Positions 3,914 to 46,092 of a DNA stretch of 64,000 nucleotides are shown piece by piece. The stretch spans positions 921 to 64,920 of the forward strand of contig RFSE01000011.1 in the NCBI GenBank assembly GCA_009924135.1, in the 5' to 3' direction. How positions within the stretch are numbered: the stretch's first letter is position 1; the number at the start of each line of letters is the position of its first letter. The notes beneath the pieces are model-generated. The model saw only the letters and a program-made list of their open reading frames with translations, searched no databases and was not told the DNA's origin. Position numbers and translations under genes: made by a program. Source of the DNA: Pseudomonadota bacterium (GTDB lineage Bacteria; Verrucomicrobiota; Verrucomicrobiia; Limisphaerales; SXTU01).

Positions 3914-4098
3914 CTGGGCTTGGCTCCCCTTCGATCCCGGCGTTGAAACGCCGGCTATTTTCCAGCGTCCCTTCGGGAGGAATTACCACCAAGCACCCAT
4001 ACCTCCGCCGCTTGAATGGCGGGGCGGTGGCGAATCCCAACGGATTTCACCCCGCTCCGGAAGGCGTTGCAATAACCCAACGCGTTCGTCGGCCTCGG

Positions 4099-4247
4099 GT
4101 GGCACCCGCGTCTCGCGGGTAGTTTTCGGCGTCCCGCCGAAAACTTGGTCGTACGAACGACCAGTAGCAACCGCACTCACCAGGACTCCGCGCGTCAGCG
4201 GTTCGGGCGGGACGCCCGAACCGACCCGCGAGACGCGGGTGCCACCC
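4099..4247. repeat. REP-like hairpin cluster with a 23-bp inverted repeat
   Basis: ggtggcacccgcgtctcgcgggt (4099-4121) and acccgcgagacgcgggtgccacc (4225-4247) are exact reverse complements. Internal hairpins are gttttcggcg-tcc-cgccgaaaac, ggtcgt-acga-acgacc and gttcgggcg-gga-cgcccgaac. The direct repeat gttgcaataac lies outside the span at about 4066 and 4268. Confidence 0.85.
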
Positions 4248-4313
4248 CAAGCCCGGCAAGTCCGCCAGTTGCAATAACTGAGTTGCGCCCTCCCATCTGG
4301 CTCCGGACAACCC

Positions 4314-8432: not shown

Positions 8433-8466
8433 AGCCCCAGCCGCCAGGCTGGGGCTTTTTGCTTTT
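8433..8466 (+). terminator. Rho-independent terminator after korB
   Basis: Stem agccccagcc / ggctggggct with loop gcca, followed by tttttgctttt, starting 24 nt after the korB stop. Confidence 0.8.
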
Positions 8467-8513
8467 GAAGCCAGGTAGTTTGTCGCCAATAAAACACGAA
8501 ACTGATCGTCCGG

Positions 8514-8551
8514 CGGATGTTTCTGTGTTTCATCTGTGTCCCATCTGTGGC
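8514..8551 (+). promoter_or_regulatory. solo tri-iteron arm (ATCTGTG-type repeats at 11-bp spacing) upstream of the zinc-ribbon gene
   Basis: cggatgtttctgtgtttcatctgtgtcccatctgtggc. It has the same architecture as the arms of the MITE-like elements at 31370 and 45887, and ends 15 nt before ATG 8567. Confidence 0.55.
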
Positions 8552-8566
8552 TAGAAAGAATACGTT

Positions 8567-17781: not shown

Positions 17782-17813
17782 CCATCTGTGTTCAATCTGA
17801 GTCCATCTGCGGC
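17782..17813 (+). promoter_or_regulatory. solo tri-iteron arm upstream of the M20 peptidase gene
   Basis: ccatctgtgttcaatctgagtccatctgcggc, with atctgtg / atctgag / atctgcg at 11-bp spacing. It ends 54 nt before ATG 17868, in the divergent MFS/M20 spacer. Confidence 0.5.
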
Positions 17814-23380: not shown

Positions 23381-23515
23381 GTAGCGCAGGCTTGCAGCCT
23401 GCTGTTTCGCGGGTTTTCAACCCGCTGACGGCACCCACTTTTACGGGCCGCTCGGTGCGCAAGACGCCCTGCCGGCTACAAGCCGGCGAAACAGCAGACT
23501 GCAAGTCTGCGCTAC
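23381..23515. repeat. 33-bp imperfect inverted repeat (gtagcgcaggcttgcagcctgctgtttcgc type) with internal hairpins
   Basis: 23381-23413 versus the reverse complement of 23483-23515 matches at 30 of 33 positions by hand. Each arm contains its own palindrome. Internal hairpins are gcgggtt-ttc-aacccgc and gccggct-aca-agccggc. Confidence 0.8.
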
Positions 23516-30076: not shown

Positions 30077-31168
30077 CTACGCCTGGCCGACGACATTCAC
30101 GAAGCAATGCACGTGCGGCAGAACGCGGTAGTTCCAGATGAAGCCGGGACCTTCGAGCCGCCAGTAATCCCAGCGGTCGTTGCCCTTCTCCGCGTTCTCC
30201 TTGTAGAAGGCGAGGCGCACTTTCTCCATGCCGCCGTTGCTCTTGATAAGCTGCATCACCTCGTCGCCATCCTCCTGCCGGAAGGGGCTGATCAACGTGC
30301 GCATGACGCCCGTGACCAAGGCTTGCTGCGATGCGTCCAGCTCGGCGTAACCGATGCCGGCCGGAGGTTGCTGCACAAGCTTGGGCCGGAGCGCCGCCGC
30401 GCCGTCACCGGGATCGCCAACGATCACGGCCTGCTTCTGCTGCTGCGCGTTGAGCATGTCAAACGCGCTCATCACCTGCCGGGTCTGGTAGTTGTAAACG
30501 TTGGCCTCGCTGTGACCATTGGCGGAGTGGCCGTAATACATCGGCCCGCCGAACGCAGCGTTGGGCTGGGAGTTGCCGTCGCAACGCAAGGTCAGGTGAT
30601 GCCCGGCGAAGACCCAGGAGAAGCGTTCCTTGCCCGAGGGATCGCCGAAGATGGCGACGCCGTTGCCTTCGAACGAACCGGAGGTATCCCATTTTCCGTT
30701 GCGGCTGATCCGCTCGAAAGCCTCCTCGCCCGAGAGGATCGCCTTGAAAGTCATGCGGATCAGGTCCTGCTGCGGCTTGGTAAACTGCTCGCCCAGCTTC
30801 TTGCCGAGCGGAGCGGCGTTGTGGGTCTTGAGCCGCGTCGGCGTGCCACCCTTTTCCGCACCGTCATCCCACGGACGGACCATCGCCCTTTTCTGCTCGT
30901 CCGTGAGAGTGGCGAAAAACTCGCGCACCAAGGCTTCCGCTGGTTTCGCCGGACGCGGCGCATCCGCCGTGGCAACCTTGGGAAGCAACGTCGCGCCCGC
31001 CGCCACGCTCGCGGCCCCGCCGGCCACGGCCCGGATGAAGTCGCGTCGGGCGAGCCCGTTCGTCGGCGTGACGGTTTCAGAACATTCCGGGCAGGTCTGA
31101 AGTCTGCGGTTTGAGTTCATGGGCTGGGGTTGAACTATGGGTTGCACGGCGAAGGGTTTCGGGTTCAT
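30077..31168 (-). CDS. DUF3500 domain protein with a twin-arginine signal
   Basis: Tat-like ARRDFIRAVAGGAASVAAG, plus FAGHHLTLRC and WRLEGPGFIWNYRVLPHVHCFVNV. Start at ATG 31168 or 31120. Confidence 0.75.
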   Translation of the reverse strand: MNPKPFAVQPIVQPQPMNSNRRLQTCPECSETVTPTNGLARRDFIRAVAGGAASVAAGATLLPKVATADAPRPAKPAEALVREFFATLTDEQKRAMVRPWDDGAEKGGTPTRLKTHNAAPLGKKLGEQFTKPQQDLIRMTFKAILSGEEAFERISRNGKWDTSGSFEGNGVAIFGDPSGKERFSWVFAGHHLTLRCDGNSQPNAAFGGPMYYGHSANGHSEANVYNYQTRQVMSAFDMLNAQQQKQAVIVGDPGDGAAALRPKLVQQPPAGIGYAELDASQQALVTGVMRTLISPFRQEDGDEVMQLIKSNGGMEKVRLAFYKENAEKGNDRWDYWRLEGPGFIWNYRVLPHVHCFVNVVGQA

Positions 31169-31369
31169 GGGGGTGACACTACGCCTCCAAAGTTCGGGGT
31201 CAATGGGTTATTCCCCTTTGCGGGCGACCTGACGCAGAAGCGAGTCAACAGGGCGATGCCAGGAGCCATCGGCAAACAGGTTGCGCCACAAAACTGATCG
31301 GCTAATTTGCCGCCAGTTCCCGAACGAACCGCCGCACCACGCCATGCACCTAGCCGGCCCGATCATTAG

Positions 31370-31523
31370 CCACAGATGAAACACGGACGGAACACGGATG
31401 GGGACGAGCGGAGCACGCGTATTGTCGCAGTTGCCTGCCTGGACCAAACGGTGCGGGTCAAACAGCGGGGCAACGCGGCCCCGGCACCGTTGGCTCCGTG
31501 TTTAATCCGTGTTCCATCCGTGG
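31370..31523. mobile_element. MITE-like element, copy 1 (terminal inverted repeats made of triple iterons)
   Basis: The left arm ccacagatgaaacacggacggaacacggatgg and right arm ccgtgtttaatccgtgttccatccgtgg match at about 23 of 28 positions as inverted repeats. About 90% identical by hand alignment, without indels, to 45887-46040. Similarity extends about 14 nt further right. Confidence 0.75.
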
Positions 31524-31586
31524 CTCAACTGCATCGTCCCAACTTAGGCGAAGCTCACCTGACGACGAACGGCACCAGCCTCCCAT

Positions 31587-36006: not shown

Positions 36007-36015
36007 GGGGGGAAA

Positions 36016-36120
36016 GTGTTCAGTAATCAGTGTTCAGTTTTCAGTCATCGCAGACGCCGACAGCCGTCGGAGTGGACTCAAAACTGAAAACTGAAAACTG
36101 AAAACTGAAAACTGAAAACT
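36016..36120. repeat. inverted heptamer arrays flanking a 34-bp core (radC-lpxA spacer)
   Basis: Left array gtgttca gtaatca gtgttca gttttca (36016-36043). Core catcgcagacgccgacagccgtcggagtggactc, with ccgac-agcc-gtcgg. Right array aaaactg x5 plus a partial copy (36080-36120), the inverted counterpart of the left array and abutting the radC stop codon. Confidence 0.9.
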
Positions 36121-36827
36121 CACACATAGAAAAGTCCCAGCTCCCGCAATGACACAAAATCCCTCGGCCGCTCGGTCGTCCGATGGCCGATGATCACATG
36201 GTCGGCAACCTCGATCTTGAGCAACCGCCCGGCGCGGATCAGGTCGCGGGTGATCCGGATGTCTTCTTCGCTGGGCGTGGGATCACCGCTGGGGTGGTTG
36301 TGGACCAGCACGATCGAGGAGGCATTCGCGAGGATGGCGTGCTTGAACACGTCGCGCGCGTGGACATGGACGGAATCGAGCGTCCCGTGCGAAAGGTGCT
36401 CCATGCGAATGAGCCGGAGGCGGGTGTTAAGGAGCAACACAATCAAATGCTCCACCTCGTAACCACGGGCCTCTTCGCGCACGAGGCTGGCGATAAGTTC
36501 GGGCGAATTCAGCAACGGGGATTCGGCGCGGATCTCGGCAGCCATGCGCCGTGCCAGCGTGAATGCGGCCTGCAACGTCACGGCCTTGTCGCGCCCGATG
36601 CCTTTCACTTCGCAAAGCTCCTTCACGGAGGCCTGCGAAAGCCGGTCCAGCGTCTGAAACTTCGCGAGTAATTCCTGCCCGATCACCAAGGCGGATTTAC
36701 CCTGCAAGCCGGTGCGCAGGAGAATCGCGATGAGTTCCGAATTGCCGAGCGCATCCGCGCCGCCGGCGGCGAGCCGCTCGCGCGGCCGCTCGTTCGCGGG
36801 GATGTCCTTGATGCGGACGCTGCTCAT
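36120..36827 (-). CDS. radC: RadC-family JAB/MPN domain protein
   Basis: Trimmed to ATG 36827 (MSSVRIKDIPANERPRERL). Contains a helix-hairpin-helix (LCEVKGIGRDKA) and HNHPSGDPTPSEED. Confidence 0.9.
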   Translation of the reverse strand: MSSVRIKDIPANERPRERLAAGGADALGNSELIAILLRTGLQGKSALVIGQELLAKFQTLDRLSQASVKELCEVKGIGRDKAVTLQAAFTLARRMAAEIRAESPLLNSPELIASLVREEARGYEVEHLIVLLLNTRLRLIRMEHLSHGTLDSVHVHARDVFKHAILANASSIVLVHNHPSGDPTPSEEDIRITRDLIRAGRLLKIEVADHVIIGHRTTERPRDFVSLRELGLFYV

Positions 36828-45789: not shown

Positions 45790-45886
45790 TCAGCTTCGAA
45801 GGCTTGAACGGCGAGAATAGGGAAAAGTTGCGTCCGGGGCAAAGGAATTGCCTCAGGGAAAGGCCTTAGCCGGACCGATTCATTCG

Positions 45887-46040
45887 CCACGGATGAAACA
45901 CGGACGGAACACGGATGGGGACGAGCTGAGCACGCATTCTGTCGCAGTTGCCTGCCGGCACCAAGCGGTGCGGGTCATGCAGCGGTGCGGAGCGGTCCCG
46001 GCACCGTTGGCTCCGTGTTTAATCCGTGTTCCATCCGTGG
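45887..46040. mobile_element. MITE-like element, copy 2
   Basis: ccacggatgaaacacggacggaacacggatgg ... ccgtgtttaatccgtgttccatccgtgg. About 90% identical to 31370-31523, with most differences in the interior. It lies between the ATPase start (45789) and the prc stop (46093). Confidence 0.75.
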
Positions 46041-46092
46041 CGCAACTGCATCGTAGGCTAAGCCAGACCGAAATCCACCTGTCCGATTGAGC

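Follow-up and report, generated by a model that had tools for sequence, protein, structure and literature searches.

Palindromic intergenic elements with phased hexamer arms and a putative PD-(D/E)XK nuclease partner in Verrucomicrobiota and Planctomycetota

In this study, we analyzed a 64-kb stretch of DNA (64,000 nt; contig RFSE01000011.1 of assembly GCA_009924135.1, positions 921 to 64,920), hereafter the window, from a bacterium of the order Limisphaerales (Verrucomicrobiota); all statements on the source genome refer to this window. The window contains two copies of a palindromic element (copies 1 and 2). Our analysis revealed that they are gene-less members of a palindromic intergenic family of Planctomycetota and Verrucomicrobiota. 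The arms of this family are arrays of TCCGTG hexamers, and arms of the same kind bracket genes of the GxxExxY family in metagenomes. In our best reading, the copies are non-autonomous elements that resemble REPINs (hairpin-forming doublets built from REPs, repetitive extragenic palindromic sequences) and miniature inverted-repeat transposable elements (MITEs), with a PD-(D/E)XK nuclease as a partner that may mobilize them.

Results

Two copies with conserved arms and a variable core

A repeat search of the window found an ungapped pair of 175 nt (31363-31537 and 45880-46054) with 90% identity. An earlier sequence-only reading had described two copies at these places, about 90% identical, with the differences in the centre and with arms that are inverted repeats of each other, and in all these respects it agrees with our results. 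Its length of about 155 bp was too short: in a MAFFT alignment with one 1-nt gap, the homology runs from 31351/45867 to 31537-31538/46054-46055, which gives a unit of approximately 187 nt. The copies differ at 1 of 60 arm positions (31374, A/G) and at 14 of 96 core positions, the latter all inside 31410-31479 (Fisher p=0.0097); constraint on the arms is thus visible inside the window.

Each arm consists of three TCCGTG (or TCTGTG) hexamers, 11 bp apart from start to start, and ends with GGC(TAA) (Table 1). Because this spacing is close to one helical turn, the hexamers lie on one face of the DNA. On the minus strand, the left arm of copy 1 reads TCCGTG twice, then TCTGTG, then GC. The arms of copy 2 (45885-45915 and 46012-46042) are 31-nt inverted repeats with 87% complementarity. 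TCYGTG-N5-TCYGTG is matched 12 times in the window, where 1.2 matches are expected; none of 100 shuffles reached this number. Of the 12 matches, 10 fall in the four arms of the copies and in a lone arm at 8522-8553. With an nhmmer profile of 172 arms taken from other genomes, exactly these five arms are detected in the window (E 1e-9 to 3e-12), and a decayed sixth at 17783-17812. As outward-facing arms of at least two TCYGTG hexamers at 10-11-bp spacing that end with GGC, all four arms of the copies match this profile with E values of 3e-11 to 3e-12: 31365-31400 (minus, 8e-12) and 31495-31528 (plus, 3e-12) for copy 1, and 45883-45917 (minus, 3e-11) and 46012-46044 (plus, 3e-11) for copy 2. The 64 kb therefore hold several dispersed copies, namely two full elements and two lone arms. 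The lone arms and the three-hexamer, 11-bp structure of the arms had escaped the sequence-only reading.

On both strands, each copy is predicted to form a single long hairpin, with energies of -88.6 to -97.9 kcal/mol and z-scores of -3.9 to -5.4; no equally stable fold arose in 200 shuffles. The 96-nt core is common only to copies 1 and 2 (85% identity), and no similar core was found in approximately 1 Mb of related loci. A single reading frame, of 80 aa, runs across copy 2, in a GC-rich spacer, and no similarity to proteins was detected; the copies are thus within the size range of MITEs (less than about 600 bp) and non-coding. The homology of the copies continues past the arms, by 18-20 nt at one end and by 13 nt at the opposite end, and their extended termini read ACGATGCAGTTG-GCCAC....

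Table 1. Positions of the two elements, the lone arms and the adjoining promoter-like blocks in the window
Feature	Position	Strand	Sequence or basis
Copy 1, gene-less palindromic element	31351..31538	none	Alignment with copy 2; hairpin fold
Copy 1 left arm	31369..31398	-	GCCAC, then CACAGA 31371-31376, CACGGA 31382-31387 and 31393-31398
Copy 1 core	31399..31494	none	96 nt, non-coding
Copy 1 right arm	31495..31524	+	TCCGTG at 31495, 31506 and 31517, then GC
Copy 2, homology with copy 1	45867..46054	none	Alignment; hairpin fold
Copy 2 left arm	45886..45915	-	GCCAC, then CACGGA three times
Copy 2 core	45916..46011	none	96 nt
Copy 2 right arm	46012..46041	+	TCCGTG three times, then GC
Lone arm, TCTGTG variant	8522..8553	+	TCTGTGTTTCATCTGTGTCCCATCTGTGGCTA, ending GGCTA; nhmmer E=1e-9
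Decayed lone arm	17783..17812	+	ATCTGTGTTCA-ATCTGAGTCCA-TCTGCGGCAAAAA; one-mismatch pattern match; nhmmer E=0.005
TTGACC-N16-TAGTGT, sigma-70-like (context, outside element)	31176..31203	-	Between copy 1 and DUF3500; kept in L220-L223
TTGCCC-N17-TATTCT (context, outside element)	45814..45842	-	Within a ~95-nt block 5' of GspE, conserved in all relatives

The arm family in two phyla

The distribution of the arm was determined with an exact three-hexamer pattern in species-representative genomes and in a viral collection. The pattern was found in more than 117 stretches of the former and in 14 stretches of the latter. Among the matches listed, 114 of 117 were in metagenome-assembled genomes (MAGs) of Planctomycetota (Pirellulales, Planctomycetaceae, Gemmataceae and others) or Verrucomicrobiota (Limisphaerales, Pedosphaera and Verrucomicrobiales), sources in which contamination is possible, and several of these MAGs carried at least 3-6 arm loci each. 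The sequence-only reading had held that the restriction of the repeat to two copies and an identical spacer in relatives would indicate a conserved regulatory region; the family is far larger than two copies, and the spacers of relatives differ, as described below.

The consensus of 185 arms is A-TCCGTGTTyCA-TCCGTGTTyCA-TCCGTGGCTAAA. Its outer boundary is sharp: position +29 is C in 99% of the arms, and after GGCTAAA conservation is gone, fading over five A/T-rich positions. Arms of 30-33 nt thus define the ends of the elements across the family. They occur singly or in pairs, of which 42 face outward, with GGCTAA at the outside, and 3 face inward. The cores between paired arms measure 6-377 nt and are mutually unrelated between elements.

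Some TCCGTG cores hold complete nested hairpins of sister families with the units CTCTGTG, ATCTGCG and CTTCGTT (L017 1756-1960, L123 5152-5401, L083 2602-2746, L103 832-971 and L053 3002-3296). Such sister families, among which the unit CACGAAG was also seen, share the periodic design of the arms, and it looks as if hairpin elements insert into each other's centres. One virus-classified IMG/VR contig carries three lone arms in the same orientation (L008 1506-1534 and 2737-2765, L009 268-296), each followed by an apparent start codon approximately 10-25 nt on. A 99-aa frame between the arms of L008 (89 aa from the first ATG) gave no significant Pfam match and is unproven as an alternative cargo.

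Arms of the same kind bracket GxxExxY nuclease genes

The sequence-only reading had reported that the window lacks a transposase; indeed, none is present among its sizeable open reading frames (ORFs), a few of which have no Pfam match. All-against-all BLAST of the 278 ORFs within 400 nt of arms revealed no recurrent transposase either. The neighbour clusters comprised DUF1501, SDR, ABC and radical-SAM proteins, which are taken to be common paralogue families of these phyla, and a small PDDEXK_3 cluster of 124-136 aa. No functional class was enriched among the arm-neighbour genes. In locus L030, an ORF of 124 aa fills the inter-arm space exactly (...CACGGAT/TCA(stop)...(start)CAT/TTCCGTG..., with slashes at the junctions). 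The partner protein, of 124 aa, belongs to TIGR04256 "GxxExxY"/PF13366 (PDDEXK_3).

The same arrangement was found in loci that were chosen from metagenomes by protein similarity alone (the best 80 of 520 relatives, 55-86% identical to three proteins of the Planctomycetes-Verrucomicrobia-Chlamydiae, PVC, group). Sixty-four of 77 distinct GxxExxY genes lie between both arms in the canonical orientation and within 150 nt, the upstream arm being of the CACGGA type and the downstream arm of the TCCGTG type, against a background of 0.066 relaxed sites per 160 nt. A looser search adds arms for five more genes (approximately 69 of 77). Nearly all sampled genes have TTTAGCCACGGAT..CACGGAT just 5' of the start codon and ATCCGTG..CCGTGGCTAA just 3' of the stop codon, and the downstream arm starts 3-4 nt past the last codon in 27 of the 64 cassettes. 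The cassette measures approximately 450 bp, and its arms are mostly three-unit. The termini of the gene-less elements are therefore also the termini of a gene-bearing form; the encoded protein is a minimal PD-(D/E)XK nuclease and not a known transposase.

Of 81 two-ended elements selected by their arms, a single one contains the gene in intact form, two contain remnants of it, and in the other 78 nothing related was detected. The mid-sized cores of L081 and L114 are truncated N-terminal PDDEXK_3 remnants (E ~1e-10). The cores of the window copies were ruled out as decayed PDDEXK_3 genes by tblastn (E>5). No PDDEXK_3 relatives were found in the viral collection.

The GxxExxY protein retains the D...E-x-K motif, and its predicted model has a generic PD-(D/E)XK fold (predicted local distance difference test score, 74.7). 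Foldseek matched the model to Cas4 (4ic1), Hjc (2wiz) and 3ijm with template-modelling scores of 0.4-0.5 and E values of at least 1e-3; since these are only generic, weak PD-(D/E)XK matches, a narrower fold assignment was rejected. The protein has no relative by sequence in the PDB and no match in PADLOC. The family is very large: its close relatives alone, clustered at 90% identity, amount to more than 7,800 clusters. Its function is listed as unknown (PMC3424549).

In several metagenomes (L133 820-1270 and L137 1497-2020), the GxxExxY cassette lies between sufB (ending ...EGSVG-stop) and sufC (MSKP.IEIKNL...), gene names that were read from the protein termini. Located between these genes, the cassette must share the transcript of an operon for Fe-S assembly. 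L137 has a second short element behind the GxxExxY gene. In L090 (364-753), a 121-bp unit of element plus spacer is repeated 3.2 times in tandem with 99% identity, and this array adjoins a GxxExxY gene with arms of its own on both sides.

Sites of the two copies in the window and in relatives

As the sequence-only reading had stated, both copies lie in spacers at the head of operons. Copy 1 is located between the divergent DUF3500/cytochrome c/DUF1080/ABC operon (minus strand) and glpK (plus strand). Copy 2 separates the stop codon of a tail-specific protease (Tsp) gene from the start of the gene for a GspE-type secretion ATPase, both on the minus strand, and begins 31 nt past the Tsp stop codon. 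Each copy is accompanied by a promoter-like block (Table 1). The TTGACC-N16-TAGTGT block ends 7 nt before the ATG of DUF3500 (31168) and is a putative promoter of the DUF3500 operon; with this conserved block next to the ATG, copy 1 would lie upstream of the likely promoter and not in the 5' untranslated region. The TTGCCC-N17-TATTCT block lies between copy 2 and the GspE gene and is a putative promoter of GspE. Both copies are outside these blocks.

Copy 2 is missing from the Tsp-GspE spacer of five relatives (L213, L215, L217, L218 and L219; GspE 88-91% identical), which confirms the empty site that the sequence-only reading had proposed to look for. The five relatives keep the Tsp-GspE-...-secretin gene order and the ~95-nt block with TTGCCC-N17-TATTCT next to GspE, and the spacer measures 117 nt in L217, the closest relative, versus 303 nt in the window. 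The element is thus present in the window and absent from the orthologous sites. The MAGs behind L213 and L223 hold family members at other loci. The same spacer contains a different palindrome (GGTAGGGTGAGACTC...GAGTCTCACCCTGCC) in L213 (3735-4000) and an insertion sequence with DDE_Tnp_1 and DUF4372 ORFs in L214 (1475-4000), as if elements had landed there repeatedly. At the site of copy 1, L221-L223 no longer share the upstream gene order, and only a conspecific strain from another sample (L220; DUF3500 99% identical) was informative; there, the copy is 100% identical.

The window and L220 differ in a patch of approximately 25 nt (window ~31221-31250 versus L220 ~280-310; CGCTTCTGCGTCAGGTCGCCCGCAAAGGGG versus CG-TTCTGTTGAGAGTTGCCCACTTGCGGG) that lies between copy 1 and the promoter-like block of DUF3500, while the element itself is identical. 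In the window (31166-31203, minus strand) as in three relatives, 7 nt separate the conserved, -10-like TAGTGT hexamer from the ATG of DUF3500, and this short gap suggests a leaderless or near-leaderless mRNA. In the spacer after GspE, hairpins with tandem 7-8-nt-repeat arms were observed in L218 (4753-5022), L219 (4753-4926) and L213 (5753-5899), with a different unit in each relative at the same site (CTCCAAG.., TTGCGTG.. and GTGTTCC..); such hairpins seem to be general in the intergenic DNA of this order.

Junctions and pairs within genomes

Pairs of elements with private cores also occur within other genomes (L024/L120, L112/L132, L065/L106 and L081/L114). In L024, L120 and L132, the sequence shared past the family-wide termini is itself inverted and conserved between MAGs. 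Element junctions read TTTA/GCCAC...GTGGC/TAAA, and a palindromic TA duplication is indistinguishable from an extension of the terminal repeat. In L044, L040 and L058, the inverted symmetry runs 10-12 nt into the lineage-specific flank. The extensions past the termini may be longer subfamily termini, insertions into similar targets or imprecise copying.

Probable selection at the level of DNA

The hexamer positions of the arms are invariant, whereas the spacer positions between the hexamers are unpaired in 26-64% of cells, and left-right agreement at these positions is near chance. The conserved feature is the phased hexamer array and not the helix, which points to sequence-specific recognition of DNA. 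In 64 gene-oriented cassettes, the arm duplex was better on the sense strand in 32 cases and on the antisense strand in 31 (Wilcoxon p=0.96). A search of Rfam 15 at gathering thresholds gave no match anywhere in the window, and a permissive search gave only noise (best 22 bits versus a cut-off of 137). A terminator scan found nothing at the elements, and no U-tract follows the hairpin. These results indicate that the arms fit better as DNA-level terminal repeats than as RNA. The recognizer of the arrays would most simply be the enclosed nuclease.

In copy 1, A.C mismatches of the plus strand are G.U pairs on the minus strand; a strand-specific RNA helix was rejected, since this asymmetry is not general in the 64 cassettes. 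One arm-flanking base shows a compensatory change (A..T in copy 1, C..G in copy 2). Motifs of the CsrA type (GGA; opposite strand ACACGGAUG) were set aside, as the stem would sequester them and there is no strand bias.

The orientation of arms to flanking genes was determined with crude gene calls (longest ORFs weighted by GC content at third codon positions). The GGCTAA end points toward gene starts in 48 lone arms and toward gene ends in 36, and in 38 versus 38 paired arms. A reading as promoter or operator was dropped because the orientation is mixed. Many arms stand 10-30 nt from start codons; choosing the first start codon in frame may have contributed artificially to this cluster of short distances. 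The sequence-only reading had offered two possibilities for the element. One, a structured regulatory module, is not supported in view of the lack of an Rfam match, the mixed gene orientation, the position of the element upstream of both promoter-like blocks, the absence of strand bias and the left-right covariation, which was weak in the covariance analysis it had called for. The other, a non-autonomous mobile element, is borne out in the main by the dispersed family with its conserved inverted termini and unrelated cores, the empty site of copy 2, the private-core pairs of other genomes and the gene-bearing version, although not in its textbook MITE form, in view of the absence of a target-site duplication, the nuclease partner and the homology of same-genome copies past the termini.

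Discussion

Our results provide evidence that a dispersed family of hairpin elements shares its termini with one family of nuclease genes, and we lean towards nuclease-dependent, DNA-level mobilization of non-autonomous copies as the explanation of the two copies in the window. The GxxExxY cassette would be the complete version, and the window copies would be related to it as REPINs are to the genes of REP-associated tyrosine transposases (RAYTs) or MITEs to their parents. The hexamer arrays may be the DNA recognition sites of the GxxExxY nuclease, which may be supplied from a copy elsewhere in the genome and may cut, or otherwise promote copying of, the element. The two copies would have arisen by one insertion and one duplication in this lineage, and they probably have no dedicated regulatory role at their present sites.

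Several results weigh against this explanation. The 64 kb contain no GxxExxY/PDDEXK_3 gene; because of this, and since the rest of the genome lies outside the window, supply of the nuclease in trans is an assumption. To our knowledge, no strand-transfer chemistry is known for a PD-(D/E)XK hydrolase of 124 aa, and the GxxExxY protein is therefore not a transposase in the usual sense. The target-site duplication that the sequence-only reading had suggested as a check is absent: direct repeats at the junctions of 134 two-ended elements were at chance (1-6 nt, offsets 0-4). In every same-genome pair, the homology extends 13-40 nt past the family-wide termini, so that the copied unit is not cleanly set by the family-wide arms. 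Part of the longer-side extension at copy 2 (CCGGCTA(A)GG) resembles the ancestral flank at this site, and copy 1 may accordingly derive from copy 2, with a piece of its flank carried along. The sufB-sufC cassette is intact where the proteins have diverged by about a quarter to a third (by eye, over a short N-terminal stretch), which argues for stable inheritance and not for frequent movement. The orientation statistics depend on crude gene calls. Finally, the arms of one element pair slightly better with each other than with those of other elements: in 53 full-arm elements, 92.0% of cells are paired for own arms versus 91.0% for swapped arms (covariation 0.086 versus 0.067), and the duplex energy in the cassettes is -43.2 versus -38.5 kcal/mol. 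Some hairpin constraint or arm-to-arm homogenization is possible; the excess is small, and relatedness alone can produce it.

In a different explanation, the repeats came first, and GxxExxY is an invader of the homing-endonuclease type that recognizes the inverted arrays, cuts between them and is copied in via arm homology. The gene-less elements would then be targets or empty sites and not derivatives, and their spread and conservation would have another reason. Homing endonucleases of the PD-(D/E)XK type exist (I-Ssp6803I). In agreement with homing, the ORF takes up the whole core, its start and stop codons abut the arms, and a target-site duplication is lacking. The excess of gene-less over gene-bearing elements, by more than 25 to 1 with unrelated cores, and the arm-gene-arm-core-arm layouts of L137, L136 and L141, which look as if the gene had entered beside a short element, also agree with homing, and the truncated genes in L081 and L114 fit either model. 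Nevertheless, we consider homing unlikely, because it leaves the spread of the gene-less elements and the conservation of the arms in two phyla unexplained, recombinational repair would have little homology to work with (30 bp on each side), and intact genes persist at one orthologous site, unlike in a cycle of invasion and decay. A purely local event, that is, a segmental duplication or a genome-specific regulatory spacer with no wider family, would account for the core private to the two copies and for the 13-20 nt shared beyond the arms; it is refuted by the match of the arms to 172 foreign arms (E 1e-11 to 1e-12), by the orthologous spacers that lack the element, and by arms that are more conserved than the core.

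The invariant hexamers at 11 bp with variable spacers have the architecture of cooperative binding sites, and the arrays might bind a conserved host protein (nucleoid-associated, insulator or response-regulator-type), so that the elements would be kept for organizing or regulating neighbour genes and GxxExxY genes would merely sit inside. Conservation of the arms across two phyla and between the window copies, as well as the many arms close to start codons, agree with such a role. We regard it as improbable, since GGCTAA orientation is mixed for both lone and paired arms, the neighbour genes show no enriched class, close relatives lack the element in a spacer whose promoter-like block they keep, both window copies are outside such blocks, and the base-exact link to one gene family would be left unexplained. 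Selection of a hairpin in the transcript, as a terminator, 3' stabilizer or RNase III site for which the arms keep a duplex of ~30 bp, much like the inverted repeats around 23S rRNA intervening sequences, has about the same low probability in our estimation. The very stable predicted folds, the position of copy 2 directly after the Tsp gene, the presence of cassettes inside co-transcribed operons such as sufB-sufC, the slightly better pairing of own arms, the compensatory flank change and the G.U pairs on the minus strand of copy 1 all suggest it. The absence of strand bias, the unpaired spacers with left-right agreement near chance, and the lack of a U-tract, a terminator-scan match and an Rfam family contradict it; moreover, a need for a duplex would not fix the hexamer sequence across two phyla, and lone arms are unable to form the helix.

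Among known systems, REPIN-RAYT appears closest in architecture. In that system, REP doublets that form hairpins flank RAYT genes (Bertels and Rainey 2011, PMC3116915; PMC3337134). The likeness comprises inverted doublets around a short spacer that form hairpins, intergenic scatter with lone, decaying copies, a small protein gene that is enclosed by the inverted repeats and presumed to act on these, and long vertical persistence; the hairpin doublet is also the replicating unit here, given the excess of outward-facing pairs and the doublets duplicated within genomes. In contrast to REPIN-RAYT, the partner is a PD-(D/E)XK nuclease and not an HUH/Y1 (IS200/IS605-like) transposase, and the arm consists of three direct hexamers, whereas a REP is a short palindrome tagged with GTAG or CGTC. 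GxxExxY genes are multi-copy, as their cluster number indicates, while RAYTs are typically single-copy, and the hosts are Planctomycetota and Verrucomicrobiota rather than Proteobacteria.

Bacterial MITEs such as the Correia elements of Neisseria are non-coding intergenic elements of approximately 100-200 bp with terminal inverted repeats. The window copies share this size range and setting, conserved terminal repeats with a less conserved interior, and presence or absence among strains. They differ in the lack of a target-site duplication, the 11-bp periodicity of the termini, the wholly unrelated cores of the family, a parent without a DDE transposase, and termini whose conservation spans two phyla. 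The intervening sequences in 23S rRNA genes resemble the cassette in having an ORF of about 120 aa between inverted repeats, which would pair as a long stem in the transcript, and many paralogues elsewhere in the genome; unlike the cassette, they encode a four-helix bundle (PF05635) and are sited in rRNA, whereas the elements described here lie between protein-coding genes with no evidence of RNA-level selection. We found no paper that ties these intervening sequences to the arm family. Operators of the OmpR/PhoB type have direct repeats at 10-11-bp phasing and share with the arms an invariant core and variable spacers at one helical turn. In contrast to such operators, the arms are dispersed and polymorphic, take no fixed position or orientation to promoters, and form inverted pairs around arbitrary cores. 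Integron attC sites (RYYYAAC/GTTRRRY) were rejected, as the termini read TTTAGCCAC...GTGGCTAAA and the ORF lies inside a palindrome, not between palindromes.

In a literature search of incomplete coverage, the arm sequence did not turn up in any paper, and the few papers that mention GxxExxY or PF13366 do not link the family to flanking repeats; on MITEs and REPINs in these phyla, a search equally incomplete in coverage yielded only surveys of GTAG/CGTC REPs. Provisionally, the link between GxxExxY and the arms is thus undescribed, and the arm family, the phased-hexamer termini and the nuclease partner are new here. Approximately 83-90% of the sampled GxxExxY members stand base-exactly between phased hexamer arrays, and the arrays form a much larger gene-less population. 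These two facts lead to the testable hypothesis that GxxExxY binds or cuts TCCGTG arrays. The result would also be a second partnership of a repeat with a single gene beside REPIN-RAYT, with different chemistry. A broader proposal is tentative, and we would sooner doubt than adopt it: the GxxExxY gene and the triple-hexamer repeats might form an unrecognized class of minimal selfish or semi-domesticated elements, cassettes of approximately 450 bp that encode nothing but the 124-aa nuclease, that seeds large numbers of gene-less hairpins and persists across two phyla as REPIN-RAYT does in Proteobacteria, with unrelated chemistry. If true, this would be the first functional context for TIGR04256/PF13366. 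In practice, metagenome assemblies probably break at these repeats, as many members of the family are found on contigs of 0.5-1.3 kb, and the arms can be mistaken for regulatory motifs because many of them are 10-30 nt from start codons.

Lone arms and other hairpins in the window

The lone arm at 8522-8553 is separated by 13 nt from the start codon (ATG, 8567) of a downstream zinc-ribbon gene (Zn_ribbon_8) and directly follows a terminator-like hairpin at approximately 8435-8466. A decayed left partner at approximately 8484-8502 is only suggestive, as its score was reached by 7 of 500 shuffles. The decayed arm at 17783-17812 is located approximately 55 nt 5' of the ATG of a peptidase M20 gene.

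Three further palindromes were observed. The intergenic palindrome at 36015-36124 has arms of tandem 7-nt repeats, one arm consisting of AGTGTTCAGTAATCAGTGTTCAGTTTTCAGT and the opposite arm of (ACTGAAA)n; it is a hairpin with tandem-repeat arms like the TCCGTG arms, with a different unit and period. The palindrome at 4091-4253 has 48-nt arms with 88% complementarity around a 67-nt centre (GGCCTCGGGTGGCACCCGCGTCTCGCGGG...) and is an unrelated intergenic hairpin element. REPs with GTAG tags have been reported in PVC bacteria (PMC3733652), and the composite palindrome at 23381-23515, with 45-nt arms that start with GTAGCGCAGGCTTGCAGCCTGC and end with ...GCAGTCTGCGCTAC, resembles them in its GTAG/CTAC ends.

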